DNA of 64,000 nt from Dehalococcoidia bacterium (GCA_965237475.1 OZ250140.1:2597877-2661876); one strand, 5' to 3'. Shown: positions 3,357 to 44,058, numbered from the stretch's first letter. A program made the numbers and translations. The notes: generated by a model not told the origin, from the letters alone.

Positions 3357-3357
3357 G

Positions 3358-5679: not shown

Positions 5680-5724
5680 TGGGGGCGGCCGCGAGCATTT
5701 TGGTGCGAATTCACATCTGTTAGC

Positions 5725-8608: not shown

Positions 8609-8711
8609 CGGGGGCTCCGATCGGGCTGGTTCTGGTGCGCGCAGGCTAGGCGTCGGCGGCGCTCGCGTATCTTGCGGCCAGTGAACCGACCAGCAAGGCG
8701 GAGGCGACGGG

Positions 8712-9473: not shown

Positions 9474-9496
9474 CACACAGACACAGGAGCGGTCAG

Positions 9497-20246: not shown

Positions 20247-20462
20247 GGGTGGTCCCCAAGCCTTCGCTGAGCGAGGCGAGGGTAGCACTGGCCAAGCGTT
20301 GTGGGCGCGGCCGTTGGGGTTCTGCCCCTGAGGAGCGCTTTGGGAGGGGGATTCCGCAGCACACTCAATGTGTGCTGCGGGGGCCGAAGGGCTCGGGGCG
20401 GGACGCTGCCTCGCGCGGCAACCAGCTCGCGTGGGCGGCTGTCAGAAGTTTTCTCATGGCCT

Positions 20463-21839
20463 TTAGTTCTCCCGATGATCCTGGAACGAGCGGCGCCAGC
20501 TGACAGATGCAGCGATTTGCTCAAGTAGCGAAGCCGGCGAGGCTTTACCCTGACAGTCGTACACACAGCCGGTGTAGTGGCTGCGCTCGGACTCATAGTC
20601 GCGATGCGTGTCGAGGAATATCCAGACATCGTGATCCGTCGCGTCGTGCAAGCTGTACCCAACCCTGTCCCGGTCCCAGACGTGGATATGGCTCATGACG
20701 TAGTTGTGGTCCCCGTCGAATGTCGTGAGGACCGTGATCGAGTGCCCTGGAGGTACGTCAAATGCAGTGAAGGTGTCGTGCATAGTAAGATCATGACGCA
20801 TCCAGTAGGCGCCGGGCGCGAGGTTCGCGTATGATGGTGGTCCCCACATGCTCAGGACCGTTGGCGGCGGACAGTTGGGCAGATCGAGCGTTTCGAGGTC
20901 ATGATCCTCAACGTCGAGCAGCGCCGGCGGGACGCAGCCGGTGAGCGTATTGCCGCCGAGCCTGATCAGGTTCAGGTTGGTGAGGGATTCCAACTTCGTC
21001 GGAATCATGCCGGACAATGAGTTGCGGTCCAGCCGCAACTCGGTGAGTTCGCTGAGGTCACCCAGCCAACCCCAGATTTCACCGGTCAGACCGCGTTGTG
21101 CGAGATCGAGACCGGTCACTCGCATGGGTGTGCCGCCCAGCGTGACCCCTTGCCAATCGGCCGTGGGTCGGTCGACTGTCCAATCCAGGTCAGGCCCATC
21201 GCCCTCCAGCACGTCGCGCAGGGCGAGCAAGTACTCGCGATCGGCTAACAGGCCCGGATTGGATGGCGGTACGGCGATCTCGACATCTCCGTAGCGATAG
21301 GACCCTGTCGATGAGAGCCCGTCGTCGAGCAGCACCTGGACCATGCCCAGCGGCCGCCAAGTCATGCGCAAGGTCGGGCTGAAGTTGGGCGGATCGGGGT
21401 CAACATCGTGAACCTGAAGGAAGATAAGGCTGGGGTCGAGCGCCCGCTGCAGCACCCGCAGACCGATCCCGGCAATAAACACACCGCTCATCCTGTGTTG
21501 CGCGGGATGGAAGCCTGGCCAGCCATACGTTACCGTTACACCGCTTCTGCGAAAGACACCGGGATACGGATCCGGAACGTCGTAATACGGGTGGCTAATG
21601 CCGTAGTCGGGCAAACGGAACGTGCCCAGTTCGTCCCAGCGTGCGCCTGCCTGACGCGCGCTCAGCCACAGCTCCTGCGGGTCCGTCACTCGTTGCCAGA
21701 TGCGAAGTTGAAGGACGACCGTGTCAGTCTCGCCAGCTTCGGCGCCCGCCGCCGGCTGGGCCGAGGCGTGCCCCGCCAGGAGCGCGACGAGCAGAGTGGT
21801 CGCGATGGCCAGCGCTACCAGTGTGGCCGAGCGCCTCAC
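20463..21839 (-). CDS. Secreted leucine-rich-repeat protein (signal peptide, then LRRs with an N-cap WQGVTLGG...RVTGLDL and C-cap LDLPNC)
   Basis: N-terminal MRRSATLVALAIATTLLVALLAGHASA; LxxLxLxxNxLSG repeats; paralog of 22365..23696. Confidence 0.7.
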   Translation of the reverse strand: MRRSATLVALAIATTLLVALLAGHASAQPAAGAEAGETDTVVLQLRIWQRVTDPQELWLSARQAGARWDELGTFRLPDYGISHPYYDVPDPYPGVFRRSGVTVTYGWPGFHPAQHRMSGVFIAGIGLRVLQRALDPSLIFLQVHDVDPDPPNFSPTLRMTWRPLGMVQVLLDDGLSSTGSYRYGDVEIAVPPSNPGLLADREYLLALRDVLEGDGPDLDWTVDRPTADWQGVTLGGTPMRVTGLDLAQRGLTGEIWGWLGDLSELTELRLDRNSLSGMIPTKLESLTNLNLIRLGGNTLTGCVPPALLDVEDHDLETLDLPNCPPPTVLSMWGPPSYANLAPGAYWMRHDLTMHDTFTAFDVPPGHSITVLTTFDGDHNYVMSHIHVWDRDRVGYSLHDATDHDVWIFLDTHRDYESERSHYTGCVYDCQGKASPASLLEQIAASVSWRRSFQDHREN

Positions 21840-22142
21840 GGGCTTGTGTCCATCCAGATCGACTCGGCGAGGCGATCAAACAGGGACGCGACGTTGGTTG
21901 TTGCCGTCTGGCTGGCTGACACGATCTTAGGGTAGCATTCCTTGGCCGCCTCGAGGTCGAGGCGAATCCAGGCGTTGTGGGCGGCGTGGTTGGGGTTCTC
22001 CCGCTCAGGCGCTTCGCGTCAGCTCCCCCGCGCGGGGAGCGCTTTGGGAGGGGATTCCGCAGCACACTCAATGTGTGCTGCGGGGGGGAGCCATCAGAGG
22101 TCGCGGCTGTCAGAAGTTTCCTCACGGCAGTTATTCCTCCCA

Positions 22143-22364: not shown

Positions 22365-23696
22365 TCATGGCCATTCGAAATAACTCTGGTAGGTCTGTTT
22401 GTCTACCGTGGCGACGGTCGTCCACGCGGAGGCCGCGAGCTTTTCGATCCAGGCGGCCGGTGAGTATCCGCCGCGGCAGTCATAGATGCAGCCGGTGTAG
22501 TGACCGCGTTCGCGCTCGAGGGCGGTGTCCCAATCCCAAAACACGTATGCACTATGGTCGAACGGGTTGCGAACGGCGAGGCCCATGGCCATTCCACAAT
22601 CCGCAGATTCGAATATGTCCACGAGGTCTCCATCCAGTTCGCAAGTCGGGCCGCTCGGTTCGGGTCCGTACTGCGCGACGCTCAGGCGGGCCCATGGCCG
22701 GTCGATGACGATGACCATGTAGTCCTCAAGGTCGCTGTCGGACCATGCGATGCTATTTACATAGTGAGGGGCGGTCCCTGGCGGTTCGCCTAGATCCATC
22801 AGCACGGCGCATTCCTCCAGACCTGTGTCCGCCAGATCGTGCTGTGCCACTGACCACAGACCCGGTGGAGCACAGCCGCTCAACTCGTTGCCGCCCAGCC
22901 GCAGCATCGTCAGTTGTTTCAGCAACTGCATCTTCGTAGGGACGGTGCCGCTCAGTTGATTGCCATTCAGCTGCAATCCCTTCAGCTCCGACAGGTCCCC
23001 CAGATATCCCCAGATCTCACCCGCAAGATTGCGCTCCGTGAGGTCCAGGCCGGTGACGCGCGGCGGTGTTCCGGACAACGTGATGCCCTCCCACATTGCC
23101 GTCGGTGTGCCGACGCTCCAGTTCAGCGGCGGACGAGCGTCGAACACGTCCCGCAGCGCCAACAGATGCTCGCGGTCGCGCAGCAGCTCTGGGTTGCCGC
23201 GCGGTACGGTGATGCGCAGATCGCCGTAGCGCATGCGAGTCGCCTCGTCAGCTCCGTGGTCTAGTGGCAACCGTGTCTTTCCGAGCGGACGAAACGGATC
23301 TATATCGGTGATCCCGCGCCCGCTGAGGCAGGCTGAGGCACATGCCGCGACGTAGACGCGCTCCGGCGCAACGTCCTGTTGAACGATCCGCAGTCCTACG
23401 CCAGCCACGGAGACGTTGCCGTACCAGTGCCGCGACTGATCGTTCACCGCGTCCGACAACTGGTCGTTGATCAGCGGGACCCGCTCGAGCGCTTCCTCCG
23501 GATACCCGGGTACTTGCGCGCTCACCCACAACGACTCTGGCTCGTCAACGTCTTGCCACACCCGCAGATCGACGGTGACCGAGTCGAGCTGGAGGTCGCC
23601 CGGAGAGGTACATGCCGAGACCCCAGAGACGATCGCGACTAGAAGCGCGGCTGACGTGATCGGCCACCGTGCGAACGTGCGACGCTGGTTGCTCAC
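22365..23696 (-). CDS. Secreted leucine-rich-repeat protein, paralog of 20463..21839
   Basis: Same architecture (WEGITLSGTPPRVTGLDL...LSGTVP...LEEC); probable GTG start. Confidence 0.7.
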   Translation of the reverse strand: MSNQRRTFARWPITSAALLVAIVSGVSACTSPGDLQLDSVTVDLRVWQDVDEPESLWVSAQVPGYPEEALERVPLINDQLSDAVNDQSRHWYGNVSVAGVGLRIVQQDVAPERVYVAACASACLSGRGITDIDPFRPLGKTRLPLDHGADEATRMRYGDLRITVPRGNPELLRDREHLLALRDVFDARPPLNWSVGTPTAMWEGITLSGTPPRVTGLDLTERNLAGEIWGYLGDLSELKGLQLNGNQLSGTVPTKMQLLKQLTMLRLGGNELSGCAPPGLWSVAQHDLADTGLEECAVLMDLGEPPGTAPHYVNSIAWSDSDLEDYMVIVIDRPWARLSVAQYGPEPSGPTCELDGDLVDIFESADCGMAMGLAVRNPFDHSAYVFWDWDTALERERGHYTGCIYDCRGGYSPAAWIEKLAASAWTTVATVDKQTYQSYFEWP

Positions 23697-23963
23697 GGTG
23701 AGGCGTCCATCCAGATCGATTCGGCGAGTCGGTCGAAGAGGGCTGCGATGTCAGCTGTTCCCGTCTGGCTGGTTGACACGATCTTAGGGCAGCAATCCTC
23801 GGTCGCCTCGAGGTCGAGGCGAATCCAGGCGTTGTGGGCGGCGTGGTTGGGGTTCTCCCCCTCAGGCGCTTCGCGCCAGCGGAGCCTTTCGGGAGGGGAT
23901 TCCGCAGCACACTTAATGTGTGCTGCGGGAGGGAGCCTTTTGGGAGGGGATTCCGCAGCACAC

Positions 23964-24827
23964 TTAGTGTGTGCTGCGGGGGCCGAAGGGCTCGGGGCGG
24001 AAGGGGTCGTCGCGGGCGCGGAGGAAGGCGCCGAAGCCGCCGTCGCGGCGGGCTTGGTCGAGATGCTCGACCTCGGGGCCGTCGGCGGAGGCTTCGACGA
24101 TGGTCGAGAGCAGGGAGCCGACGTTGAGCGCGTTGCGCAGGCCCATCGCCTCGAGGCCGCGCGCGGTGATCAGCTTGTTGTAGCGAATCGAGTCGGAGGG
24201 GACACGCGCAAGCCGCTCGGCCAGCGCGTGGGACCGGTCCATGAGGTCCTCGGCGGGCGCGATCTCGTTGATCACGCCGATTCGCAGCGCCTCCTCGGCG
24301 TCGAAATGGTCGCCCGTCAGCGCGTAGCGATGCGCGACCTTCCAGCCGGCGAGAATCGCGAACAGCACCGACGAGTTCGAGACCATCCGCACCTCGGGCT
24401 GGGCGAACACGGCGCGATCGGACGCGATCGTGATGTCGGAGGCGAGCGCGTACCAGAACCCGCCGCCGATGCACCAGCCGTTGACCGCGGCGATAATCGG
24501 GGTCTCCAGGGTCATCAGGTGCATCATCATGTCGGGGTTGCGGGAGGAGAAGTGGTGCCAGCGGCGCAGGTGGGCGGAGACGGGCGTGCGCGGGCCGCCG
24601 ACGGCGCTGTCGATGCCGCCATCGATGTTGTAGCCGGAGGAGAAGGCGCGGCCGGCGCCGGTCACGATGATCGCGCGCGCCGAGGGGTCGGCGTTGGCCT
24701 CGTCGAGCGCGAGGTGGAACTCATCCTCGAGGGCCGGGGTGATCGCGTTTAGCGTCTCGGGGCGGTTCCAGGTGATGGTCACCACCGGCCCGTCCTGCTG
24801 GTAGAGCACGTTTTCGTAGTCGGGCAT
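23964..24827 (-). CDS. Enoyl-CoA hydratase/isomerase (crotonase) family
   Basis: ITWNRPETLNAI...IIVTGAGRAFSSGYNI oxyanion-hole motifs. Confidence 0.75.
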   Translation of the reverse strand: MPDYENVLYQQDGPVVTITWNRPETLNAITPALEDEFHLALDEANADPSARAIIVTGAGRAFSSGYNIDGGIDSAVGGPRTPVSAHLRRWHHFSSRNPDMMMHLMTLETPIIAAVNGWCIGGGFWYALASDITIASDRAVFAQPEVRMVSNSSVLFAILAGWKVAHRYALTGDHFDAEEALRIGVINEIAPAEDLMDRSHALAERLARVPSDSIRYNKLITARGLEAMGLRNALNVGSLLSTIVEASADGPEVEHLDQARRDGGFGAFLRARDDPFRPEPFGPRSTH

Positions 24828-25338: not shown

Positions 25339-26835
25339 TCACTCAACCTTGTATTCGACGCGATATGTCCCGTCCCCAGCGCACCCAATCTGGTTTTCAA
25401 CAAGCCACTGCGCATTTTCCTCCGCCACCGTTCTTGCCGGAGCAGGTCCCAGCACGAACGGACTCAACCCCGTCACGCAAGTGACGGTCGCGACCCATCC
25501 CGGCTGTTCGCTTGTTGCCCTGACCCCTGACTGACCACCTGTATGGCCCGATCTCGCCGCTGGAATGTTCACTCTCCAATCAAAGGCCACGGTCGCCCAA
25601 ATGCCGTAGGCATGTCCGTTCCGGAGTATAAACCGAGTGTTCAGAAACTCGGGCGCGTCTTTGGCATATATGCGCCAAACCATGTTTGCGACATCATACC
25701 ACACTGCATGACTGATCCTGTCCTCGTTATCGATCGCAATGTCGACCCGCGTCGCGAAACCGGGCCATATTATGTCGGTCAGTTCTCCTGCCTCCAAGCT
25801 GATTGTGGTAGTCTGGATGGAGATGACGACGGGGGTAACGGGCGCTCTCGGCGTTCCATACGCAGGATTACTTGGCCCGCCATGAACCGGGCCGCGAACG
25901 ACACGCAGTTCGATCACGTATTCCTGATCATTGGTCAGAGTCTCGATATCGAAGGTCTCTGCTTGTAGGTTAGGCAAGTCCATCTCCCGCCAATCCCCGC
26001 CATCGAGCCGATGTTGGTACCTGTCGCCCCTCCGCACTATTAGTGGCTTTTCCCAAGTGATACGCAGGCTCTCGTTCGTGGCCGTCGCCTGTAGCGCGGT
26101 TGGTTTTTTGGGAACGCCGTAATAGGCTACGAGAAAATCGGTCAAGTCGGTGTCCGTCAGGCGCGGCAGATTGCCCCCGGCAGTTACCGTGCAAGCATCG
26201 GTGATGGTATCGGTGTTCATCAGGGCGACGTGGTCCAGCTCCAAGTTTCCGCCGGGATCGTGGACAACCGGTGTGTACCCGCAATGATAATGCGACAAGC
26301 CCAGGACGTGCCCCAACTCATGGCCAAGGTCACGAACTAACTGACGATTGGTAGCGCTATCAGTGCTGGGTGTGTAATAGCTGGCAACGACATGAATGAA
26401 GGCCTTGCGCGTATACGTCTGCAGAGTCGGGTTGTAATGTGTGTGTTGTGCGCACAGCAGACCTGCCGCGGAACACGGGTTGATCGCAGGTCTTGACACC
26501 TCGACACTTGCAAGCTTGTCAGTGGATTCGGCGGTGCATTCGTCTCTATCGCTTTGGAAGACGAACAGGGGGGCATCGGTGTACGCTGCAGTCGCATCGT
26601 TCCAGATCCTGATGGCCTCCTCGGTCGCCAGGGGAAAGCCTGCGGAACAAGTGGGGATGCTCTCTGCGAGTTCGACGTTTCTGACTGTAATACTCGGGTG
26701 CAAGAGATAGGGACTTCGGTGTTCGTCTGTGTGACCCGACTTCGTGGTGGTGGCGTCGAGCAGGATTCCCAGCGCGAGCATCAGTAGGATTAGGGCCACT
26801 GCTTTCGCACTTGCGATGTGGTGGCGGGGTGTCAT
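25339..26835 (-). CDS. Secreted zinc metalloprotease of the metzincin clan (HELGHVLGLSH) with a C-terminal FN3/Ig-like region
   Basis: HExxHxxGxxH motif; N-terminal signal/TM; start overlaps the stop of 26832..28895 by 4 bp, so the two are probably co-transcribed. Confidence 0.7.
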   Translation of the reverse strand: MTPRHHIASAKAVALILLMLALGILLDATTTKSGHTDEHRSPYLLHPSITVRNVELAESIPTCSAGFPLATEEAIRIWNDATAAYTDAPLFVFQSDRDECTAESTDKLASVEVSRPAINPCSAAGLLCAQHTHYNPTLQTYTRKAFIHVVASYYTPSTDSATNRQLVRDLGHELGHVLGLSHYHCGYTPVVHDPGGNLELDHVALMNTDTITDACTVTAGGNLPRLTDTDLTDFLVAYYGVPKKPTALQATATNESLRITWEKPLIVRRGDRYQHRLDGGDWREMDLPNLQAETFDIETLTNDQEYVIELRVVRGPVHGGPSNPAYGTPRAPVTPVVISIQTTTISLEAGELTDIIWPGFATRVDIAIDNEDRISHAVWYDVANMVWRIYAKDAPEFLNTRFILRNGHAYGIWATVAFDWRVNIPAARSGHTGGQSGVRATSEQPGWVATVTCVTGLSPFVLGPAPARTVAEENAQWLVENQIGCAGDGTYRVEYKVE

Positions 26836-28895
26836 GGCGTTTGGCCTTCGACGCTCGCGGATGCGGCAATGTAGTCGAACACATCCTCGATAGTCACGCC
26901 GTCAGCAGTCCGGGCGTTGGACCCTATATGCCTGGAAGATACTGTTCCGTCCCCGATTTCGAGGCAGAGAAAAGCTTCATCGGCGGTAGCGGCCAAGCAG
27001 AGGGACATTCCGTTGTAGTTGACGATCGTTCCGCCCCACTCAAGGTGATGAGCGGTAGTAGGAATAGAGAAGGCCAGGTGCGGATTTCCACCTGGTCTGG
27101 TCGAGAATTGATAGCGTCCCGGTGCGAATGGTAGGCCGCTGAGGGCATCGTCCACGGGCGCCGGTGCGGTAGGCGAAGGGGGATTGGTGACCGTGAAGCG
27201 AAGGGTAACGACAATGTCGCCGAGTTGCGGTTTTAGTCCGGGCCGGAGCGGCGGCTTCGCCGCTCGGAGGTCGAAGGTGAGTTCCGATGCCGCGCCTTCA
27301 AATTCAGTCGGCGTGAAGGTGTAGGTCGTGCCGACTGGAGGGATCAGTCGCTCGTAGGTGGTGGGCGAGGGACGCGCGAGGGGCGTCCGTTGCAGGTAGA
27401 AGCGGGTGTAGCCCGCCGGCAGCCGGGCGGCCGTCACGACGGTGACCTGCTGACCGCGCTCGACCTGGTAGCGGCCGTTTGAGTCGGGCTGGATGAGGAG
27501 CGAGTCGGGGATGTCCTGGACCTGGGCGTAGTCGTCCGGGGCGCCTTTGTAGACGGCGCGGATGCAGTCTGCATCGGTCGCCGTGGCGCAGCGGTCCGTT
27601 GGCAGCGGCGTGAATGCCGCTGTGACGGTCTTGTCGGGGTACATCTCCAGGACGCAGGTGGTGGCCGTGCCGGCGCAGTCGCCGCCCCAGCCCCCGAAGC
27701 TGTGCGTCGCATCGTTCCAGCTCGCCGTCAACGTCACTTCGGAGTCTTCTTCGTGGGTGGTCGCGCCGGCCGGGTCGACGCTGCCGCCGGCCCCTGCGGT
27801 GGCGGTCAGGGTGTAGGTCGGCAGCGGGGTCTCGGGCGTCGCCGGTGCGTCCGCGGCGCAGTCGGGCAGGTTCAAGTGCCCCAGGTCATTGGTCCGCACC
27901 CGCCGCAAGCGCGGCGGCACGCAGCCGCTGATCCCGCTGTTGCCCTTCACATACAGCCGGCTCAACTCACGCAAGTTCGTCAACTGCTGCGGCAGCGAAC
28001 CCGTCAAGCGGTTGTGCTCCAGGCGCAGATTGTCGAGTTGCGTCAGGTTGCCCAACTGGGTCGGAAGCGGACCCGAGAGCTGGTTGCGCGCCAGATGCAG
28101 CCAGCTCAGGTTCACGAGCCGGCCCAGGCGCGTCGGGATCGAGCCGGTCAGCCGATTGCCGTCCAGGTAGAGGTCCGCGAGGCCGGTGAGGTTGCCCAGC
28201 TGCGGCGGGATCGAACCGGTCAGCCCGACCCCCTCCGGCAGCGGCCGCGGTCCGCTCAGGATCAGGTCGGTCAGCTGCGGGCCGATCGCGCCCAGCTCGG
28301 GCGGGATCGGGCCGGTCAGCCGGTTGCCGGCGAGGTTGAGATCGGTCAGCCGGGTGAGCTGTCCCAGTTCCGCCGGGATCGAACCGGTGAGCCGGTTGCG
28401 CCAGGCCAACTGCAACTCAGTCAGCCCGGTCAGCCCGCCCAAGGCGGGCGGGATCGTGCCGTCAATGCCCGCCCGATCCAGGTTCAGCACCGTCACTCGC
28501 TGGACGCCGTCCACCGTGCCGACCGTGATGCCGGTCCACTGATTGAGCTGGCGCTCGGCGCTCCAGTTGAGCGTGGCCGTGCCGCGCAATGTGTCCTTGG
28601 CCGCCAGCAGCACGGCGCAGTCTGCGACCAGGTCGGGGTTGTCGGTTGGGCTCGGTACGACGGTGCCGTTCGCGCAGGGCTCCGTCGCCGACGCGGGCTG
28701 GGGGCCAAGGCCCGAGGTCAGGAGGATCGTCGCCACGAGCGCAGCGATCATCAGGAGGAGCGCCGTGGAGGCCGCGTAGCGCTTCCAGCTGGGGGTCGCT
28801 GCCTGTCCGCCTGCGTCCTCGGCGCGCCGCGCCCTCGTCAGCCGGGCGCGCAGCGCCGCCAAGCCAGCCAGAATCGCGCGCGTGACTTCAGACAT
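26832..28895 (-). CDS. Secreted LRR + InlB-B-repeat-like + DRC-domain protein; its N-terminal ~420 aa are a near-copy of the giant protein's N-terminus
   Basis: Nucleotide segment 27820-28900 is roughly 90% identical to 17000-18080; C-terminal ...DVFDYIAASASVEGQTP. Confidence 0.75.
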   Translation of the reverse strand: MSEVTRAILAGLAALRARLTRARRAEDAGGQAATPSWKRYAASTALLLMIAALVATILLTSGLGPQPASATEPCANGTVVPSPTDNPDLVADCAVLLAAKDTLRGTATLNWSAERQLNQWTGITVGTVDGVQRVTVLNLDRAGIDGTIPPALGGLTGLTELQLAWRNRLTGSIPAELGQLTRLTDLNLAGNRLTGPIPPELGAIGPQLTDLILSGPRPLPEGVGLTGSIPPQLGNLTGLADLYLDGNRLTGSIPTRLGRLVNLSWLHLARNQLSGPLPTQLGNLTQLDNLRLEHNRLTGSLPQQLTNLRELSRLYVKGNSGISGCVPPRLRRVRTNDLGHLNLPDCAADAPATPETPLPTYTLTATAGAGGSVDPAGATTHEEDSEVTLTASWNDATHSFGGWGGDCAGTATTCVLEMYPDKTVTAAFTPLPTDRCATATDADCIRAVYKGAPDDYAQVQDIPDSLLIQPDSNGRYQVERGQQVTVVTAARLPAGYTRFYLQRTPLARPSPTTYERLIPPVGTTYTFTPTEFEGAASELTFDLRAAKPPLRPGLKPQLGDIVVTLRFTVTNPPSPTAPAPVDDALSGLPFAPGRYQFSTRPGGNPHLAFSIPTTAHHLEWGGTIVNYNGMSLCLAATADEAFLCLEIGDGTVSSRHIGSNARTADGVTIEDVFDYIAASASVEGQTP

Positions 28896-28948
28896 CGCTC
28901 CACCTCTCACCGCACTACGCTGCCCCGACCTCGGGAGGGGAGCCTAGC

Positions 28949-30268
28949 ATGGCGGGACCGCTTGATGGCGTTCGGGTGCTTGAACTTGGGCAGATCATTG
29001 CGGGGCCGTATGCGGCCACTGCGCTGGCCGACCTTGGCGCCGAGGTGGTCAAGCTGGAGCCGCCGGGGGGCGAGGGCGGGCGCCGGCTGGGGCAGTTCGC
29101 GCCCGGCGAGAGCAAGGCCTTCCACAGCCTGAGCCGCGGCAAGCGCGGGATCGTCGTGGACCTGCGCAAGCCGCGCGGACGCGAGGTCGTCCAGCGCCTG
29201 ATTGCCGATTTCGATGTCTTCGTGACGAACGCGCGGCCCGGCGTGCCGGAACGGATCGGCGTCGACTACGAGACGTTGCGGGGCTACCGCTCCGACCTGA
29301 TCTACCTGCACATCACCGGCTTCGGGGACCCCAACCAGGTCCCGGCGGGGGCGCTCGACGCGCGGCGGCTGCAGGAGATCACGCAGCGCGCGGGCTCGGA
29401 CGTGATCGTGCAGGCGTACTCCGGCCTGCTGGCGGCCGACGAGAAGGTCGACCGGCACGGCGCGCCAGAGCCAATCACTGCGACGGCCCCAGCCGACTGG
29501 GTGGCGGCGTTCGGGGGCGCGATGGGGGTGTGCGCGGCGCTCTTTCACCGCCAACGCAGCGGCGAGGGGCAATACCTGACCACCTCGCTGTTGGCCGCGG
29601 CGCTGACGCTGCAGGCGCCCTGGCTCGCCTCGGTGCCGCCGTCGGACGCGTTTCTGGTGCAGCCGCTGCTCGACCGCTTCGCCGAGCTGCGCGACGCGGG
29701 CGCCAGCTACGCCGAGCTGATCGAGGCTCGCCGCGAGGCGCCGCGCCAGACCCGCGCCTTCCGGCTCTACTACGGCGGCTATTCCGTGAGCGATGGCGCG
29801 ATCATCCTCGGCGCGTTGACGCCGGCCAACCGCAACCAGATCAGGCGGGCGCTGGGGATCACCGACGACCCGACCGAGAGCGACGATTTCAACGCGATCG
29901 CGCCCGAGTCGGGCCCGATCGTCGATGGCGTGCGGCGGCAGATCGCCGAGCGGATGCTGAGCGCCACGATGGAAGAATGGATGCAGCGCTTCGACGCCGA
30001 GGGTGCGCCGGCGTCGATCGTGCGCCTGCCCGAGGAGATCAACCTCGACCCCGAGCTCGACGCGATGGGTCTGCTGCGCCCGATCGAGCACGCGCTCAGC
30101 GGCCCCGAGCGCCACGTCGGTCCGCTGGTGAATATGTCGGCCACGCCGACGGGCACGGATCGCCCGTCGCCGCCACTCGACGCGCACACCGACGAAGTGC
30201 TGCGGGAGCACCACTTCAGCGAGGAAGAGATCGCGGCCCTTCGAGGCGAGGGCGCCATCGGTGTCTGA
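28949..30268 (+). CDS. Family III CoA-transferase (CaiB/BaiF family)
   Basis: VLELGQIIAGPYAATALADLGAEVVKLEPPGG N-terminal signature. Confidence 0.75.
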   Translation: MAGPLDGVRVLELGQIIAGPYAATALADLGAEVVKLEPPGGEGGRRLGQFAPGESKAFHSLSRGKRGIVVDLRKPRGREVVQRLIADFDVFVTNARPGVPERIGVDYETLRGYRSDLIYLHITGFGDPNQVPAGALDARRLQEITQRAGSDVIVQAYSGLLAADEKVDRHGAPEPITATAPADWVAAFGGAMGVCAALFHRQRSGEGQYLTTSLLAAALTLQAPWLASVPPSDAFLVQPLLDRFAELRDAGASYAELIEARREAPRQTRAFRLYYGGYSVSDGAIILGALTPANRNQIRRALGITDDPTESDDFNAIAPESGPIVDGVRRQIAERMLSATMEEWMQRFDAEGAPASIVRLPEEINLDPELDAMGLLRPIEHALSGPERHVGPLVNMSATPTGTDRPSPPLDAHTDEVLREHHFSEEEIAALRGEGAIGV

Positions 30269-31447: not shown

Positions 31448-33900
31448 CGTTCGGCCGTCGGCGGAGGCTCCGTGCGCGCTGAAGCGGCGATGTAATCGAA
31501 GACGTCGGAGATAGTCACTGAGGCATCCGTCAGGGATCTACCAGGGATGGCACGGTATACCTCCCCGCCGTCTGCCTGGGCGAGACAGAGTGTGGAGGTC
31601 TCTGCCAGATCGGCGAGGCAGAATGAAATGCCACCCGGATCCGAGAGGATGATCTCTTGCCATTTGATCTGGTGGTCGGTCGTCGGGATCTGAATGATCA
31701 ACGGTCGCTGTTCCGACCGCAACGCTGGGAATTGATATGTGCCGGGTGGTAGAGCCTCGGCATTGTAGGCAGAAAGAGGAACTTCCACCGGAATGGCCGC
31801 GGGTGGCGGTGTCAGAACGTCGAACGTGGTCGTCACGACGACGTCGCCGAGTTCGGGCTTGATGCCGGGCCGCTGCACGGGCAGCGGGCGGGCGGCGGTG
31901 AGATCGAATGTGAGGACGCTGGCGCCGCCCTCGAAGGCGATCGAAGTAAACGTGTAGGTCGTCCCTACCGGTTGGATCAGCTGTTCATGGGAGGTCGGCG
32001 AGGGCCGCACCTGGGGGCGGCGCTGGAGGTAGAAGCGGGTGTAGCCGGCGGGCAGGGGGGCGGCTGTGACGACGGTGATCTGCTGGCCGCGCTCGACCTG
32101 GTAGCGGCCGTTTGAGTCGGGCTGGATGAGGAGCGAGTCGGGGATGTCCTGGACCTGGGGGTGATCGTCAGGAGCGCCTTTGTAGACTGCGCGGATGCAG
32201 TCGGCAGCCGTCGGCGTCGTGCAGCGGTCCGCCGGCAGCGGCGTGTACGACGCCGTCACCGTTTTGTTGGCGTACATCTCCAGCACGCAGGTTGTGGCCG
32301 TGCCGCTGCAGTCGCCGTCCCAGCGGGCGAAGGTGTGGGTGGCATCGTCCCAGCTCGCCGTCAGCGTGACCGGCTCTCCCTGAACGTGCGTGGTGATACC
32401 GGTGGGTTCGACGCTGCCGCCTTCACCCGCAGTTATGGTCAACTGAGCTCGCGGCTCGAATAGGCTTCGGGCGATCGCGATGAGGCGATCGACATTGCTC
32501 CCGGTAAGGCTCGTGTTCTCTCCCCGGATCTCATACGTGGCGTCGCTCGCGGAGTCGTAGACCCAGACCGTGACCGGGAACAGGTCGTCGTAGCTTGGAC
32601 CGGGCGGGCTATAGATCACCGTCGCTGGCCGCCCGGCGACGACACGTGTCTCGCGGACTCCGCGACCGTTCCGCCAGGATGCCAGTCTGGGCTCACGCCG
32701 GTGTGCGGTGTCGTAGCCGGAGATGGCGACATCGCTTTCGCCGCCCTGATACTTGGCGTTGTAGCCATAGACCGGATCCGAGACGTCGCCGCTGCGCGCC
32801 CAGTCAAGCGTCGCACCCTCAGCTAGCGTCGGGTCCCGCCAGTATGGCAGCCGGCGCGCCTCATCGATGTCGCTCGTGCCGGTCGGCTGCGAGTAGGAAT
32901 ACCCTGCAGGCTCGCGTGTGAGGGGTTCCTCGACTGCACCGGTCCAGTCTTCGGGAACGATCTGGAAGGGACCATGGATCACTGGCGCCGTAAGGCTCGC
33001 CCCGCCGACGTCGGGCAGGTCGCCCCAGGCGAAGCTGGCATCGGCGCTACCCGCGATCGGGCCGCTGCAACCGCTGAACGCATAGGTCATCCACTCAACT
33101 GTCAGCAGCTTGCGCGGCTCTGCACCTTCCGGGTCGGGCTTGACCTCGGTCACGGTATAGCGCACCCAGCAGTCGTCGGCCGTGCGCCATTCGAAAAGGT
33201 CGTCTGCTTCGATCGAATCGAACAGAGTTGCCTGCGATGCTCCGTGCGTGTCGGACTTGTGGATCAGCAGTCCGGTCGTGGCGCCGTCGCGCAGGCCTTC
33301 GTAGGTGCTGACGGCGCTGGTCGTGTCGGCCGGGTCGGAGAGGAAGGCGTAGCTGCCCGCCGTCGCCACTGCGCCCGTCATGTCGTAGCTGGTGTAATGC
33401 AGAGTCGTCGTGTCGACCTGGAACTTAGTCGTCACGACTACATCCCCGAGCTCCGGCTTCTGTCCCGGTCGCGGGAACGGCCGCGGCCGGGCGGCGGTTA
33501 GGTCGAAGCTGAGCAGGGTGGAGCCGCGCTCATCGGTGGTGACGGTGAAGGTGTAGGTCGTGCCGACCGGTGGGATCAGCTGTGCAGCCGAGGTGGGACT
33601 GACGGTGACCTGCAGCGGGCGGCGCTGGAGGAAGAAGCGGGTGTAGTCGGCGGGTAGCTGAGCGGCGGTCACGACGGTGATCTGCTGGCCGCGCTCGACC
33701 TGGTAGCGGCCGTCCGGGTCGGGGGCCAGGAGCATCTCGGCGGGAATGTCCGTAATCTTTGTGTAGTCGTGCGGGGCGCCTTTGTAGACGGCGCGGATGC
33801 AGTCGGCGTCGGTGGGCGTCGCGCAGCGGTCCGCGGGCTGCGCCGTAAGCAACATGATCACGGCGAACCACAGGATGGCAATGAGTCGCGAGTAGGTCAT
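31444..33900 (-). CDS. Secreted protein with two DRC domains and one InlB-B-repeat-like domain (818 aa)
   Basis: Signal peptide MTYSRLIAILWFAVIMLLTAQPADRC; DRC domain at the N-terminus and again after the B-repeat; C-terminal ...DVFDYIAASARTE. Confidence 0.7.
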   Translation of the reverse strand: MTYSRLIAILWFAVIMLLTAQPADRCATPTDADCIRAVYKGAPHDYTKITDIPAEMLLAPDPDGRYQVERGQQITVVTAAQLPADYTRFFLQRRPLQVTVSPTSAAQLIPPVGTTYTFTVTTDERGSTLLSFDLTAARPRPFPRPGQKPELGDVVVTTKFQVDTTTLHYTSYDMTGAVATAGSYAFLSDPADTTSAVSTYEGLRDGATTGLLIHKSDTHGASQATLFDSIEADDLFEWRTADDCWVRYTVTEVKPDPEGAEPRKLLTVEWMTYAFSGCSGPIAGSADASFAWGDLPDVGGASLTAPVIHGPFQIVPEDWTGAVEEPLTREPAGYSYSQPTGTSDIDEARRLPYWRDPTLAEGATLDWARSGDVSDPVYGYNAKYQGGESDVAISGYDTAHRREPRLASWRNGRGVRETRVVAGRPATVIYSPPGPSYDDLFPVTVWVYDSASDATYEIRGENTSLTGSNVDRLIAIARSLFEPRAQLTITAGEGGSVEPTGITTHVQGEPVTLTASWDDATHTFARWDGDCSGTATTCVLEMYANKTVTASYTPLPADRCTTPTAADCIRAVYKGAPDDHPQVQDIPDSLLIQPDSNGRYQVERGQQITVVTAAPLPAGYTRFYLQRRPQVRPSPTSHEQLIQPVGTTYTFTSIAFEGGASVLTFDLTAARPLPVQRPGIKPELGDVVVTTTFDVLTPPPAAIPVEVPLSAYNAEALPPGTYQFPALRSEQRPLIIQIPTTDHQIKWQEIILSDPGGISFCLADLAETSTLCLAQADGGEVYRAIPGRSLTDASVTISDVFDYIAASARTEPPPTAER

Positions 33901-33912
33901 GTGCGCGAGTCC

Positions 33913-35115
33913 TTATTTGACATTCCGGATCGATGCCATGATCTGATCGAACAGGAGATCGGCCTCGGGCGACTTGGCGAAGCGGCCGAACTCCTCGCCG
34001 GTCCCCGGATTGATGTGGAGCGCCGAGCCGGTTCGCGGCTCGTTCAGCGCAATCCCACGGGATGGGAGGTGGGGGCGGGCTGGGTCACGTTCCATCTCGT
34101 ACAAACCGACGAGAACGATCAAGCTGCCGGCAGGTACGTCGATCACGTATCGCACGCCCGGGTAGAGGCGATAGGTTCCTTTCCCGGCCGGCTCGCCAGG
34201 CAGCAGCAGCTGTACGCCATCTGGAGCAGGAACCCCGTGTGGGACCCGCCAGACGAAGTAGACATCCTTGGCCGCGCCGGGATCTGTGACCAGGCCACCG
34301 CAGCTCCCGCCGTAGCGGTTGACGTTCTCGAGGCCGAAGGTGCGCGTGCTCGCCGCCGCCGCGATGCTCGCGACCTTGAAGCGGAACCCGCAATCGAGGC
34401 CGTTCGTGCGATAGTCGAAGCTGTGACCGATCTGCACCGTGTCGTAGAAGTCGGCGCGGGATGCCCCATTCGCGTCCGTCGGGTGAATGCGTAACTCCAC
34501 GCTCACTTGTGCGGAAGAGCCATAGTTGCCGATCGCGCTTGCTGCATCCCCGGCAGTTTTGAGGAAGGCGTAGCTGCCGGGGGTGGCCGGTGCGCCGGTG
34601 ATGTCGAGCGTGTCGTAGCGCAGGGTCGGGACCAGGAAATTGGTCGTGACCACGACATCGCCGAGTTCGGGCTTCTGTCCCGGTCGCGGTAGCGGTCGCG
34701 GTCGAGCCTCCGTGAGGTTGAAGGTGATCAGGTTTGAACCAGCCTCATTTGCGGCCACAGTGAAGGTGTAGGTCGTGCCGACCGGTTGAATGAGCTGCTC
34801 GAATGAGGTCGGACTGACGGTGACCTGCAGCGGTTGGCGCTGGAGGTAGAAGCGGGTGTAGTCGGCGGGCAGCGGGGCGGCGGTGACGACGGTGATCTGC
34901 TGGCCGCGCTCGACCTGGTAGCGGCCGTCGTCGTCGGGCTGGATGAGGAGCGAGTCGGGGATGTCCTGGACCTGGGCGTAGTCGTCCGGGGCGCCTTTGT
35001 AGACGGCGCGGATGCAGTCGGCGTCGGTCGGCGTCGTGCAGCGGTCGGCCGGCAGCGACGTGAAGAACATGATCACAGCGAAGCACACGGTGGCGACGAG
35101 TCGCGAGTAGGTCAT
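33913..35115 (-). CDS. Secreted DRC-domain protein with a conserved ~250-aa C-terminal domain (400 aa)
   Basis: MTYSRLVATVCFAVIMFF...ADRCTTPTDADCIRAVYKGAPDDY; C-terminal ...LFDQIMASIRNVK; 12-bp gap to the downstream paralog. Confidence 0.7.
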   Translation of the reverse strand: MTYSRLVATVCFAVIMFFTSLPADRCTTPTDADCIRAVYKGAPDDYAQVQDIPDSLLIQPDDDGRYQVERGQQITVVTAAPLPADYTRFYLQRQPLQVTVSPTSFEQLIQPVGTTYTFTVAANEAGSNLITFNLTEARPRPLPRPGQKPELGDVVVTTNFLVPTLRYDTLDITGAPATPGSYAFLKTAGDAASAIGNYGSSAQVSVELRIHPTDANGASRADFYDTVQIGHSFDYRTNGLDCGFRFKVASIAAAASTRTFGLENVNRYGGSCGGLVTDPGAAKDVYFVWRVPHGVPAPDGVQLLLPGEPAGKGTYRLYPGVRYVIDVPAGSLIVLVGLYEMERDPARPHLPSRGIALNEPRTGSALHINPGTGEEFGRFAKSPEADLLFDQIMASIRNVK

Positions 35116-36614: not shown

Positions 36615-37919
36615 TTACTGCCGACGGATCGATGCGATGAGCTGTTCGAACAGTGTGCTCGGATGCGTCCCGATGATGTAGATTTGGCCCGTATGCCCGT
36701 TCGAGGGATCGATGTGGATCACGGAGCCCGTATCGACGTCTTCCAGCACCAGGGTGCTCGTTGGTTGGTCAGGCCGGTTTACGTCCGGTTCGTTGATAGC
36801 GACCCCGTGGTATATGATTCTCATGCCAGCAGGAACGTCGATCACCCACCGCCAGTATGTGTCAATTCGATAGGTTCCCTGACCGACAGGCTCGCCGTTG
36901 AGCAACACGCGCACTCCGTCTGCACCAAGGACGCCAGGCCGCACGCGCCAGATGAACTCGACCGGCTTAGCGGCGCCGGGGTCGTCGATGAAGCTGCCAC
37001 ACCCCCCGCCGTAAGAGCCTGCGTCTTCAATGCCGAACGTCCTCGGACCCGTCGTTGTCCCGATGCTCGTTACGTTGAAGCGGAACCCGCAATCGAAGCC
37101 GTTCGTCCGGTAGTCGAACGCGTCACCGACTTGGACGATGTCGTAGAAGTCCGCGCGCGAGGCCCCGCCCGCATCGGTTGGGTGGACGCGCAACTCGACG
37201 CTTCGGAGGGCGGAAACGCTGAAGTTGCCGATCGCGGTCGATGCGTCGCCGGCGGTCTTGAGGAAGGCGTAGCTGCCGGGGGTGGCCGCGGCGCCGGTGA
37301 TGTCGAGCGTGTCGTAGCGCAGGGTCGGGACCAGGAACTCGGTCGTGACCACAACATCGCCGAGTTCGGGCTTCTGTCCCGGTCGCGGTAGCGGGCGCGG
37401 TCGAGCCTCCGTCAGGTTGAAGGTGATCAGGTTTGAACCAGCCTCATTTGCGGCCACAGTGAAGGTGTAGGTCGTGCCGACCGGTTGAATGAGCTGCTCG
37501 AATGAGGTCGGACTAACGGTGACCTGCAGCGGTTGGCGCTGGAGGTAGAAGCGGGTGTAGTCGGCGGGCAGCGGGGCGGCGGTGACGACGGTGATCTGCT
37601 GGCCGCGCTCGACCTGGTAGCGGCCGTCGTCGTCGGGCTGGATGAGGAGCGAGTCGGGGATGTCCTGGACCTGGGCGTAGTCGCCTGGGGCGCCTTTGTA
37701 GACGGCGAGGACGCAAGTGGGGTCGGTCGGTGTCGTGCAGCGGTCCGGCGGCTGCGGCTTGGCCGGAGTGGCGGGCGCGTCGCGGGACGAGTCCTGCGAA
37801 GTCTGCTGCGCTACGGAGGCGGGCTGCGGGGCGGCATCGGAGGTCAGGAGGATCGTGGCCGCCACGGCGGCGGCGAGCACGAACGTGGCGGCGAGGGCTG
37901 CGTAGCGCATCCGCATCAA
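36615..37919 (-). CDS. Secreted DRC-domain protein, paralog (434 aa)
   Basis: MRYAALAATFVLAAAVAATILL; DRC domain; C-terminal ...LFEQLIASIRRQ. Confidence 0.7.
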   Translation of the reverse strand: MMRMRYAALAATFVLAAAVAATILLTSDAAPQPASVAQQTSQDSSRDAPATPAKPQPPDRCTTPTDPTCVLAVYKGAPGDYAQVQDIPDSLLIQPDDDGRYQVERGQQITVVTAAPLPADYTRFYLQRQPLQVTVSPTSFEQLIQPVGTTYTFTVAANEAGSNLITFNLTEARPRPLPRPGQKPELGDVVVTTEFLVPTLRYDTLDITGAAATPGSYAFLKTAGDASTAIGNFSVSALRSVELRVHPTDAGGASRADFYDIVQVGDAFDYRTNGFDCGFRFNVTSIGTTTGPRTFGIEDAGSYGGGCGSFIDDPGAAKPVEFIWRVRPGVLGADGVRVLLNGEPVGQGTYRIDTYWRWVIDVPAGMRIIYHGVAINEPDVNRPDQPTSTLVLEDVDTGSVIHIDPSNGHTGQIYIIGTHPSTLFEQLIASIRRQ

Positions 37920-38152: not shown

Positions 38153-39463
38153 ATGATCGGGGGCGATATGCCGGGTCCACTGCACGGGATTTCGGTGCTG
38201 GAGGTTTCGCAGATCATCGCGGGGCCGATGTGCGGGGTGCTTCTGTCGGATATGGGCGCCGATGTGGTGAAGGTGGAAGCGCCCGGCGGCGAGGCGCTGC
38301 GGGTGGTTGGGCAGTTCGCCCCGAACGAGAGCAAGGTCTTCCACGTCTTCAATCGGGGCAAGCGCGGGATCGTGCTGAACCTCGCCGACGAGCAGGGCCG
38401 CGCCGTGGCGCATCGGCTGGTGCGCGACTTCGATGTGTTCCTGATCAATGCGCGGCCGGGCGTGCCGGCGCGGCTGGGCCTGGACTACGAGACGATCCGT
38501 GAGCAGCAGCCGAACATCATCTACCTCGACAACACTGCGTATGGACCGGAGGGCCCGAGCGCCCATCGCGCCGGCGCCGACATCATTGCGCAGGCCTACT
38601 CGGGCCTGATGGCGGCCGACGAGAAGGTCGACGCAAACGGCGACCCGGTGCTGATCACGGCGACGACCCCGGCCGACTTCGGCGCGGCCTTCACCAGCGC
38701 AATCGGCGTCTGCGCGGCGCTGTTTCACCGCGAGCGCACGGGCGAGGGACAACGCATCCAGACGTCGCTGCTGGGCGCGGCGCTGACGCTGCAGAACACA
38801 GGCAACGCGCGGCTGCCGGCGTCGGACGCGATCCTGCTCGACCCGTCCCTGGACGCGGTCGCCGAAGTGCGTGCACGGGGTGGCACGTGGCCCGAGTTGC
38901 TCGCTGCCCGTTCTGGTACGCGCGCGCTGGTCGGAGGAGCGTTTCTGCTGTACTACGGCGGTTACCAGACGCGCGACGGCGCGATCATGCTGGGCGCACT
39001 GACGCCCAACAATCAGCGGCAGATTCGCGACGCGATCGGCCTGGACCACGATCCGAGCAGCGAGCCCGACTTCAATCCGCTGGCGGAGGATTCGGAAGCG
39101 ATCGTTGACGGCGTGCGTGAGCGGATCAGCGCGATTTTTCGCAGCGACACCACGGCGCACTGGATCGAGCGGCTCGACGCCACCGGCGCGCCCGCCTCGC
39201 AGGTCAATCTGCCCGAGGACATGGTCCACGATCCGCAGGTTCAGGCGCTGGGCATCATGGTCGAGCTGGAGCATCCGCTGACCGGGCCGGAGACGATGGC
39301 CGGCCCGTCGTGGTCGATGTCGGCCACGCCACTGGAGGCACAGGGAGCGTCGCCGATGCTGGACCAAGACACAGACAACGTTTTGGCCGAACATGGTTTC
39401 AGCGCCGAAGAGATCGCTGCGCTGCGGGCCAGCGGGGCGATCGGCGCAGCAGCGCCGGAGTAG
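38153..39463 (+). CDS. Family III CoA-transferase (CaiB/BaiF), paralog of 28949..30268
   Basis: ISVLEVSQIIAGPMCGVLLSDMGADVVKVEAPGG. Confidence 0.75.
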   Translation: MIGGDMPGPLHGISVLEVSQIIAGPMCGVLLSDMGADVVKVEAPGGEALRVVGQFAPNESKVFHVFNRGKRGIVLNLADEQGRAVAHRLVRDFDVFLINARPGVPARLGLDYETIREQQPNIIYLDNTAYGPEGPSAHRAGADIIAQAYSGLMAADEKVDANGDPVLITATTPADFGAAFTSAIGVCAALFHRERTGEGQRIQTSLLGAALTLQNTGNARLPASDAILLDPSLDAVAEVRARGGTWPELLAARSGTRALVGGAFLLYYGGYQTRDGAIMLGALTPNNQRQIRDAIGLDHDPSSEPDFNPLAEDSEAIVDGVRERISAIFRSDTTAHWIERLDATGAPASQVNLPEDMVHDPQVQALGIMVELEHPLTGPETMAGPSWSMSATPLEAQGASPMLDQDTDNVLAEHGFSAEEIAALRASGAIGAAAPE

Positions 39464-42689: not shown

Positions 42690-42866
42690 TCTGAACAACT
42701 CTCCCCCCGCTTTGCGGGGGGAGATGCCGAAGGCAGAGGGGGGCTGCGGTGCCGACTCACGGGCGTGGCTGTATCGGGCGAAGCGGGGACGCCCCCCTCT
42801 GTCCCTACGGGACATCTCCCCCCGCAGAGCGGGGGGAGAGGGGATCCGACTTGTTCAGAGGATTCC
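42690..42866. repeat. REP/MITE-like repeat (family A); the adjacent IS is inserted into it
   Basis: ...ccccctctgtccctacgggacatctccccccgcagagcggggggagaggggatccgacttgttcagaggattcctggcag matches the 5731-5905 unit. Confidence 0.75.
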
Positions 42867-44058
42867 TGGCAGGCTGCTGAAGAAGGGCCCCATGCACCGC
42901 GCTTCCCCGATCTTGGTGCGAGGAGTCACAACTCGACCAGCTCGGCGAGTGGATTCCCTAGTCTCACAGACGAACCGCGACAGATGATTGAGGTGAGGCC
43001 ATGGGAGCGCGCTACTCGCAGCTGGATCTGGAGGAGCGATGTGCGGTTGCCCGGTTACAGGCCGAGGGGCGCTCGGTCCGGCAGATCGCTGCAGCTCTGG
43101 ATCGCGCGCCATCGACGGTTGCTCGGGAGCTGAAACGCAACGCGGGGCGCGATGGCTACCGTCCGGGCTACGCCCAGGAGCAGGCCCGGGCGCGGCGCTG
43201 GCGCGGCTCGCGGCTGGAGCGCGACGCGGGCCTGCGCGAGCGGGTGCTGAGCGAGCTGGCGCGCGGGCTCTCGCCGCAGCAGGTCTCGGGCCGGCTGGCG
43301 CGCGAGGCCGGCCGGGCGGTGATCTCGCACGAGAGCATCTACCGCTTCATCTACGCCCAGATCTCACGCGCCAAGCCGAGCCGTCAGGGCGGTTGGCGCC
43401 ACTATCTGCCGCGGGCCAAGGCGAAGCGCGGCTGGCGCGGTCGCAAGGGCGGCAGCTCGGTTGACCACATTCAGCTGCGGCGGCCCTTGAGCGAGCGTCC
43501 GGCCGCCGCCGCCGACCGGCTCCAGGCCGGCCACTGGGAGGCCGACCTGATGCTCTTCGGACGCTCCGGTCCGGCCCTCTTGATGCTGCACGAGCGCCAC
43601 TCGCGGCTGCTGCTGGCGCTGCCGGTCGCGAGCAAGGCGGCGGCCCCGGTCGCGCGCCTGCTGGTCGCGCTGCTGCGCGGCTGGCCGCCGGCCCTGCGCC
43701 GCACGGTCAGCTTCGACAACGGCAACGAGTTCGCCCAGCACCGCGCGCTGCACCGGCTCGGGGTCGAGACGTTCTTCTGCGACGCCTACGCGCCCTGGCA
43801 GAAGGGCGGGATCGAGAACGCGATCGGCCGCCTGCGCCGGGTCCTGCCGCGCCGCCTCGAGCTCGCCCAACTCAGCATCGAACGGCTCGTGCAGGTGCTG
43901 CAGCTGTACAACAACACCCCGCGCAAGTGCCTCGACTACCTCACCCCGGCCGAAGTCTTCGGCCAGCAACTGGCGCACTTGCAATGTGAACCCACCTTCC
44001 CGCCTGCGCGGGAATGACGGAATTGGCGGGTTGCCCGACTTCTCCAGCAGCCTCCTAG
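42866..44058 (+). mobile_element. IS30-family insertion sequence (~1.19 kb) with imperfect terminal inverted repeats
   Basis: Left end GGCAGGCTGCTGAAGAAGGGCC (42869-42890) versus the reverse complement of the right end GCTAGGAGGCTGCTGGAGAAGTCG (44036-44059); single transposase ORF. Confidence 0.7.
43001..44017 (+). CDS. IS30-family DDE transposase
   Basis: N-terminal HTH (LDLEERCAVARLQAEGRSVRQIAAALDRAPSTVARELKRN); catalytic region with HWEADLM. Confidence 0.8.
   Translation: MGARYSQLDLEERCAVARLQAEGRSVRQIAAALDRAPSTVARELKRNAGRDGYRPGYAQEQARARRWRGSRLERDAGLRERVLSELARGLSPQQVSGRLAREAGRAVISHESIYRFIYAQISRAKPSRQGGWRHYLPRAKAKRGWRGRKGGSSVDHIQLRRPLSERPAAAADRLQAGHWEADLMLFGRSGPALLMLHERHSRLLLALPVASKAAAPVARLLVALLRGWPPALRRTVSFDNGNEFAQHRALHRLGVETFFCDAYAPWQKGGIENAIGRLRRVLPRRLELAQLSIERLVQVLQLYNNTPRKCLDYLTPAEVFGQQLAHLQCEPTFPPARE

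Follow-up and report, generated by a model that had tools for sequence, protein, structure and literature searches.

Probable ectopic gene conversion between the 5′ regions of two paralogous leucine-rich-repeat genes at fixed positions in a Dehalococcoidia genome

In Helicobacter pylori, intragenomic homologous recombination swaps a 5′ segment between the paralogs babA, babB and babC and thereby produces chimeric genes (PMC4552749). Gene conversion at tufA/tufB of Salmonella, like that found in surveys of prokaryotes, is RecA-dependent and non-reciprocal, with tracts that are limited by homology (PMC5485169; PMC6053082). For the PE_PGRS/PPE and other antigen families of Mycobacterium tuberculosis, conversion is reported as a source of local diversity hotspots and mosaic paralogs (PMC1762029, PMC13061034). 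Here we analyse a 64,000-nucleotide stretch of the genome of a Dehalococcoidia bacterium (GCA_965237475.1 OZ250140.1:2597877-2661876), referred to as the window, in which the 5′ part of a giant leucine-rich-repeat (LRR) gene, gene A, is nearly identical to that of a shorter paralog, gene B. This similarity very probably results from ectopic (interlocus) gene conversion between long-standing paralogs and not from a new duplication.

As in the bab system, A and B are dispersed paralogous genes for putative surface proteins, with loci that are fixed and contents that are exchanged, here as seen across genomes. The 5′ tracts of bab are short (~60–240 bp) and are accompanied by CT repeats and phase variation, whereas the present tract is ~0.9–1.1 kb long and covers a whole LRR ectodomain; no slippage repeat was seen in the A/B tract. 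The Bab proteins are outer-membrane β-barrels, whereas A and B are predicted transmembrane (TM)-anchored LRR proteins of uncultured Dehalococcoidia, known here from sequence alone. The tuf genes provide a parallel in that intragenomic paralogs are more alike than orthologs between genomes, but in their case homogenisation extends over the entire gene and purifying selection is strong; in A and B only a 5′ cassette is homogenised, and the family is fast-diverging, with a non-synonymous divergence (dN) 10-fold above that of the flanking genes. The M. tuberculosis PE_PGRS/PPE genes resemble the present locus in belonging to large, repetitive, surface-associated families in a GC-rich genome, and differ from it in that the protein families are unrelated, the phylum is another and the genomes compared are clinical isolates instead of metagenome-assembled genomes (MAGs) related at near-species level.

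The GC content of the window is 67%, and real genes were picked by their frame-specific GC content at third codon positions (GC3). Genes A and B (Table 1) are in direct orientation, both on the minus strand and 10,823 bp apart. The likely start of A is the ATG at 18072, which lies 3′ of a GAGAGGTGGAGCG ribosome-binding site (RBS) and opens a gene of 2460 codons. Both genes have a GAGAGGTGGAGCG RBS, an ATG of their own and a normal GC3, and both open reading frames (ORFs) are complete. The N-terminal part of the A protein consists, in this order, of a basic segment with a TM helix, a plant-type LRR array, a Flg_new_2 domain and an unnamed domain that we call DRC. Another ~1900 residues follow, comprising fn3 domains, a sub-threshold M23-like motif, 12 copies of CPPPPCGGEGQPA and a C-terminal domain. 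The B protein has the anchor, LRR, Flg_new_2 and DRC parts as in A, plus a C-terminal β domain of ~110 residues.

Comparison of the window with itself by blastn aligned 16566-18106 with 27389-28928 at 90.7% identity over 1545 bp (E = 0). The first-pass annotation of this sequence had reported a near-identical segment, with ~90% identity between 17000-18080 and 27820-28900. The segment is confirmed and proves longer than claimed, as A 18106-16442 aligns with B over 1665 nucleotides (nt) without a gap and with 203 differences; between the limits given in the annotation the identity is 94.1% over 1081 nt, and the offset is 10823 and not 10820. The similarity declines in steps. In 60-nt intervals the identity is 95–100% from just 5′ of the ATG to about A 17220, then 82–93% and then 53–80%. 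On a coarser view it stays at 95–100% as far as A 17167, is ~83% to about codon 380 and 55–65% by codon 560, and sinks into noise past ~A 16380/B 27210. Synonymous divergence (dS, Nei-Gojobori) between the two genes is 0.069 for codons 1–290, 0.50 for codons 291–380 and 0.78 for codons 381–543, with values of 0.6–1.4 across the segments past codon 380. This profile, which the annotation had proposed as a check, differs ~10-fold along the alignment. The far greater divergence that the annotation claimed for the downstream DRC domains is correct, and the uniform divergence expected of a simple old duplication was not seen.

The maximum chi-square breakpoint falls at A 17166/B 27989 (chi-square 120, whereas 2000 permutations gave at most 24), with 4.5% differences on one side and 22% on the other. 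It sits within the LRR array, at codon ~302 of ~345 and off any domain boundary, as is expected of a recombination junction and not of domain-wise constraint. The recent tract on the 5′ side contains the RBS, the signal anchor, the LRR N-cap and LRR repeats 1 to ~10, and A and B differ within it at 35 of 919 nt. It is followed by an older homogenised zone, in which A and B are still mutually nearest among 48 family members, and then by a zone of family-level homology, in which each of the two groups apart from the other, with positional orthologs or with paralog C; B 27313-27734, for instance, is 84% identical to gene C at 31946-32367. The single cassette of the annotation is therefore layered, with ~0.92 kb of recent tract and ~0.23 kb of older tract. 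The annotation had also regarded the exchange as a shuffling of N-terminal targeting modules. The anchor is indeed included, but the tract spans the whole putative ligand-binding LRR array, and a targeting module alone is too narrow a description.

Both loci were compared with those of three relatives, all Dehalococcoidia MAG chromosomes: OZ253504.1 (L003), OZ244584.1 (L004, L005) and ERZ25067264 ctg836596 (L006, L008). The flanking housekeeping genes (CoA-transferase, zinc-dependent alcohol dehydrogenase, enoyl-CoA hydratase, FAS1-DH-like, ApbA and luciferase-like) are syntenic in all three, with 93–98% amino-acid (aa) identity, 92–95% nt identity, dS of 0.15–0.3 and dN of 0.01–0.03. All three also have family genes at both positions. 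The B position is occupied by P0002 and P0003, which have the architecture of B, and the A position, between ApbA and the luciferase-like gene, by the LRR genes P0014 and P0027 plus a third gene in OZ253504.1. Since both syntenic loci are occupied in the relatives, the similarity of A and B is not a new duplication.

Within the genome, the paralogs A and B resemble each other more closely than either resembles its positional orthologs in the relatives. Over codons 61–290, the nt identity is 0.96 between A and B, 0.73–0.77 between B and the B-position orthologs and 0.72–0.75 between A and the A-position orthologs; over codons 1–290, the corresponding values are 0.96–0.97 for the pair and 0.72–0.80 for each gene with its own orthologs. 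In a quartet of A, B, P0027 (A position) and P0003 (B position), the sites of codons 1–380 group A with B in 95 cases, A with P0027 in 8 and A with P0003 in 7. For codons 501–560, 2 sites group A with B, 11 group A with P0027 and B with P0003, and 5 group A with P0003 and B with P0027, which favours grouping by locus. The topology thus changes near codon 380, and in the set of 48 family members A and B are each closest to the other solely for residues 1–380, beyond which each is nearest to a different protein (paralog C in the case of B). Because dS in the tract (~0.07) is below that of the flanking genes between genomes (~0.2), the latest event postdates the split from the relatives.

The same comparisons bear on a history without recombination, in which the 5′ part has simply been under stronger constraint since an old duplication. 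The leader motif and several scaffold positions of the LRR are conserved family-wide, as such a history would have it. However, synonymous divergence is ~10-fold lower in the tract, the same codons show dS of 0.4–0.7 and 22–28% nt differences when positional orthologs from the relatives are compared, and A and B cluster within the genome and not by locus. Constraint alone is refuted by the dS and ortholog comparisons, and its chance of being the explanation is close to nil.

The region upstream of A bears on a recent segmental duplication, by which the 5′ end of B would have been inserted beside ApbA, either creating the A copy or becoming fused onto an existing giant gene. A CoA-transferase relic lies 5′ of A in a divergent arrangement like that of the intact CoA-transferase and B, which counts in favour of this explanation. 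The relic reads PGPRNGVFVFEVSQITAGPICGVV and matches the N-terminus of the CoA-transferase at 38153-39463 with 67% identity, but the CoA-transferase adjoining B with only 48%. A relic of 24–33 codons is also found 5′ of the A-position genes of the relatives (L008 ~9667-9723, L004 ~9818-9886 and L003 ~21503-21571), and divergent units of a CoA-transferase and a family gene occur three times in the window (38153-39463 with gene F, 28949-30268 with B, and the relic with A). As the relic is present in all relatives, the unit must have been duplicated long ago; this ancient duplication accounts for the faint similarity upstream of the tract, and, given the age of the relic, the A copy cannot have arisen by a recent duplication. 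A longer duplication upstream of the tract, first suspected from that weak similarity, was rejected for the same reason.

In two relatives (L008 7602-9460, L004 ~7700-9500), an AAA_15/AAA_21/DUF3696 ATPase gene and a gene for a 163-aa protein, which look like a defence-type pair, lie between ApbA and the relic. The pair is absent from the window, where ApbA abuts the relic directly (18073-18204), and this absence counts in favour of an insertion at this site. On the other side, the leader of A is identical between −36 and −16 to the one found in P0014, its positional ortholog, the A position holds family genes in all relatives, and in the 3′ part of the shared region A goes with the A-position orthologs. 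A recent segmental duplication is therefore very unlikely. The annotation had offered recombination or gene conversion and segmental duplication side by side; conversion stands, and a new duplication does not, the two loci being ancestral and syntenic in the three relatives and the upstream flank of A being its own.

The upstream junction in A lies between −20 and −13. The stretch of leader that A shares identically with P0014 (GTTCGCGGGCAGGGTGGTGCG) is followed by one A-specific change at −15, and from −12 on, through the coding tract, A follows B. The annotation had the leader copied together with the gene. The strings that it quoted are present, but the similarity from −35 to −14 is largely conservation across the whole family, including the orthologs of other genomes, and the recent tract does not begin until about −20 to −13. 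All genomes compared have a conserved leader motif, GGCAGGGTGGTGCGGTGAGAGG, 5′ of their A- and B-position genes. Between the divergent start codons of B and the CoA-transferase there are just 53 nt (28896-28948), so that the promoters must overlap coding sequence.

To assign a direction, we considered the sites at which both B-position orthologs differ from both A-position orthologs. In codons 1–180, the base shared by A and B is B-type at 28 such sites and A-type at 6, while the counts for codons 181–380 are uninformative. The N-terminus of the A-position protein in all three relatives has the form VPLLLAGALA...DARTQPT, followed by a PQ-rich insert of ~34 residues before the LRR N-cap, and the A protein of the window is without this insert. 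The 28:6 ratio and the missing A-type N-terminus and PQ-rich insert suggest, with moderate confidence, that B was the donor and A the recipient.

The sharing of states between A and B could also have arisen if both had been overwritten by a third donor, either a paralog elsewhere in the genome or an allele of another strain that entered by homologous recombination. The family genes diverge between genomes to a far greater extent than the genes around them, so replacement from other sources is common in this island. For codons 181–290, A and B both come next closest to P0017 (86–88% aa identity), which is a third paralog within this genome. Over codons 61–290, however, P0017 has an nt identity of only 76–77%. 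A search of 5.8 billion clustered proteins, including those of this genome, found nothing besides B itself with more than 71% identity to B, and the B-position states that A and B carry at 28:6 in codons 1–180 are those expected if B is native. We regard a third donor as unlikely.

A further possibility is an artefact of assembly or polishing, in which the consensus of one paralog was contaminated with reads from the other, or a chimeric copy was built. The 213-nt identical run and the repeat-rich surroundings would be compatible with this, and a second contig ends inside gene A. This second record, a 48-kb ENA contig, matches 22,064 bp of the window (38895-16832) at 100% identity and contains B and the first 1.2 kb of A together; the exact B protein (P0001) is found on this contig and on a contig of 3,018,280 bp. 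In addition, the 35 differing sites of the tract remain, both frames are intact with normal GC3, and a sister genome has an analogous tract with other bounds. An artefact is thus extremely improbable, and the assembly hazard noted in the annotation is small for long reads, given that B and the 5′ 1.2 kb of A stand on one contig in the second record.

Gene conversion would have proceeded as follows. A and B occupied fixed syntenic positions on either side of a conserved housekeeping block, and in the lineage of this genome a non-reciprocal homologous recombination would have copied a stretch of B over the homologous part of A, from ~15 nt 5′ of the ATG through codon ~302. The copied stretch would have brought with it the RBS, the cytoplasmic basic segment, the TM anchor, the LRR N-cap and ~10 LRR repeats. 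An older event that extended somewhat further, to about codon 380, may have left the second tier of intermediate similarity, which would make at least two events. Homology for strand invasion and resolution was probably provided by the conserved 5′ leader and by conserved core stretches of the LRR, Flg_new_2 and DRC regions on the 3′ side. A possible route is RecA-type repair of a gap or double-strand break in A with B as the template; the dependence on homologous recombination machinery (RecA, RecBCD/RecFOR, with mismatch repair as a modulator) is presumed by analogy with known bacterial conversion (PMC5485169). Crossover outcomes may have been selected against, since a crossover between the direct repeats would delete the 10.8-kb housekeeping block.

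Several points weigh against this account. Before the event, the A-type and B-type LRR modules would have been ~70–78% identical in nt, a high divergence for efficient RecA-mediated exchange, and the model consequently needs short conserved anchors or earlier rounds of homogenisation. A third, near-identical donor is excluded only indirectly, as the search with the B protein returned otherwise at most 71% identity and yet missed gene A too. The two assembly records may come from overlapping sets of reads. The direction rests on three relatives with LRR regions that are themselves mosaic, and the sites are informative mainly in codons 1–180.

Two dedicated mechanisms of variation were considered and rejected. 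A target/template pair of a diversity-generating retroelement is not indicated by the 35 tract differences, which comprise 16 transitions and 19 transversions without adenine bias (adenine at 8 sites in the A copy and at 8 in the B copy); a reverse transcriptase gene was not specifically sought. Programmed antigenic variation from cassettes, of the pilE/pilS, vlsE or tprK type, was dismissed because A and B are both complete ORFs with an RBS. No guanine-quadruplex (G4)-like or other dedicated recombination element adjoins A or B, the sole nearby G4-like motif being inside ApbA, and no structured RNA was detected in the conserved leader, as a scan of the whole window at gathering thresholds gave no match to Rfam.

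Conversion-like tracts recur in this family. At the same two loci of the sister genome, P0014 and P0002 are 94–100% identical over codons ~91–330, compared with 62–76% over codons 1–90 and 73–81% after codon 331; this tract has other edges and is independent of that between A and B. Genes D and F of the window are 93–100% identical over 420 nt, and the flanking stretches are 63–73% identical (Table 1). Family genes show dS of 0.4–0.9 and dN of 0.17–0.38 between genomes, far above the flanking genes, and differ in 20–40% of their aa, whereas the flanking genes are 93–98% identical. They also vary in number, length and domain order between genomes in which the flanks are ~92–95% identical in nt (island at ~10.7–38 kb compared with L003–L008). 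The giant gene A corresponds to separate genes of 838, 92 and 721 aa in ERZ25067264, and residues 359–1047 of A match the B-position gene of OZ244584.1. The recurrence of tracts, the fast divergence of the family and the displaced modules together point to a recombination-driven variable island of surface-protein genes.

In domain composition, both genes match LRR_8, LRR_1, LRR_4, LRR_14 and Flg_new_2 (a divergent InlB B-repeat) in Pfam, and A also matches fn3. The LRR unit of A and B has 24 residues (LxxLxLxxNxLTGxIPxxLGxL) and the array is closed by Cys-containing N- and C-caps, as in LRRs of the plant-specific type. An AlphaFold2 model of B (mean predicted local distance difference test (pLDDT) score 84.7) comprises an N-terminal basic helix, a hydrophobic helix at residues 38–60, an LRR solenoid at residues 75–350 (pLDDT 94–98) and three β-rich domains. 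In a Foldseek search of the PDB, its top matches are ectodomains of plant LRR receptor kinases (MIK2, FLS2, PSKR and HAESA; E ~1e-14), in agreement with the 24-residue repeat and the Cys caps. The proteins resemble these ectodomains and PGIP in repeat length and caps, with 24–36% identity to the receptor-kinase ectodomains over 190–410 aligned columns in Foldseek; unlike the plant receptor kinases, they have no kinase, the TM anchor is N-terminal to the LRR and bacterial β-sandwich domains follow it. The resemblance is one of fold and repeat class, and no shared function is claimed. With B as the query, more than 7,300 database proteins of this LRR/DRC family were retrieved at E ≤ 1e-3, and its members may be regarded as putative N-terminally anchored, outward-facing binding proteins with modular C-terminal parts.

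Other features of gene A lie downstream of the shared region. A near-perfect tandem array at 11695-12168, with 12.2 copies of a 39-bp unit at 96% matches, encodes the 12 copies of CPPPPCGGEGQPA, a Cys/Pro-rich linker of the giant protein. Its copy number is likely to vary, and the array is a greater assembly hazard than the A/B repeat. At residues ~1029–1231 (~14250-15090), the motifs HAALDIGG and HLHFEIRR resemble the HxxxD/HxH metal-binding motifs of M23 (LytM-type) peptidases, with an unusually long insert between them. A peptidase assignment was rejected, as the Pfam Peptidase_M23 score of 17.2 bits falls short of the cut-off, 28.7. A similar amphipathic helix motif (DVFDYIAASA..., LFDQIMASIR..., LLEQIAASVSW, WIEKLAASAW) ends the otherwise different C-terminal domains of B, C, D, E, F, P0014, P0017 and P0027 and of the products of 20463-21839 and 22365-23696; this common helix may be a sorting or assembly signal. 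Intergenic spaces contain GC-rich palindromic repeats (...CTCCCCCCGC-NNN-GCGGGGGGAGAGGGGATCCGAC...) that resemble repetitive extragenic palindromes (REPs) or miniature inverted-repeat transposable elements (MITEs) and occur in both orientations, and further repeats of hairpin type are present (Table 1).

Table 1 Coordinates of genes, A/B similarity zones and repeats in the window
Feature	Position	Strand	Remarks
Gene A (giant gene)	10690..18072 (listed 10690-18138)	−	ORF list, translation, Pfam; GC3 0.80
Gene B	26832..28895 (listed 26832-28910)	−	ATG 28895; 687 codons
Recent tract, A (putative recipient)	17167..18088	−	About −16 to codon ~302; dS 0.03–0.12
Recent tract, B (putative donor)	27990..28911	−	Partner of the A tract
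Longest identical A/B run, 213 nt	A 17275..17487; B 28098-28310	−	0/20,000 permutations reach 213; largest 105
Older homogenised zone	A 16933..17166; B 27756-27989	−	Codons ~303–380; identity ~83%, dS ~0.5
Family-level homology only	A 16442..16932; B 27265-27755	−	Flg_new_2 and DRC domains
CoA-transferase relic	18121..18204	+	5′ end of a family III CoA-transferase; divergent from A; abuts the ApbA stop codon
Intact CoA-transferase	28949..30268	+	Divergent from B; counterpart of the relic 5′ of A
Second conversion-like tract, gene D	34597..35016	−	Against gene F 37296-37715; within the unnamed DRC domain
REP/MITE-like repeats	3355-3492, 5715-5880, 6387-6640, 42699-42872, 58762-58931	Both orientations	
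Further hairpin-type repeats	20332-20401, 21848-22092, 23705-24000		

Conversion between A and B is a well-supported further instance of a known process, and its mechanism is textbook. For the genes themselves, it means that the first 380 codons of A and B have another history than the rest and that the two are not to be handled as simple orthologs or paralogs; whole-gene trees, ortholog calls and dN/dS estimates will consequently be wrong. A bolder and doubtful suggestion is that the island at ~10–38 kb is a selected diversification locus, in which recurrent conversion among full-length paralogs reassorts the plant-type LRR module with downstream effector or stalk modules. If so, it would provide an uncultured Dehalococcoidia lineage, possibly associated with a host such as a sponge, with a combinatorial repertoire of surface receptors. 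This would be a functional analogue of adhesin and antigen variation in pathogens, of which, to our knowledge, none has been described for this phylum or protein family. The 20–40% aa differences of the family genes between genomes with closely similar flanking genes speak for such a locus.

The giant and the short protein carry nearly the same membrane anchor and LRR surface in front of different downstream modules, and from this near-identical surface it is predicted that A and B probably recognise the same partner. Within a housekeeping framework that is 92–95% identical in nt between genomes, the LRR/DRC genes diverge ~10-fold faster at non-synonymous sites, and the island is a reasonable place to seek determinants of cell–cell or host interaction.

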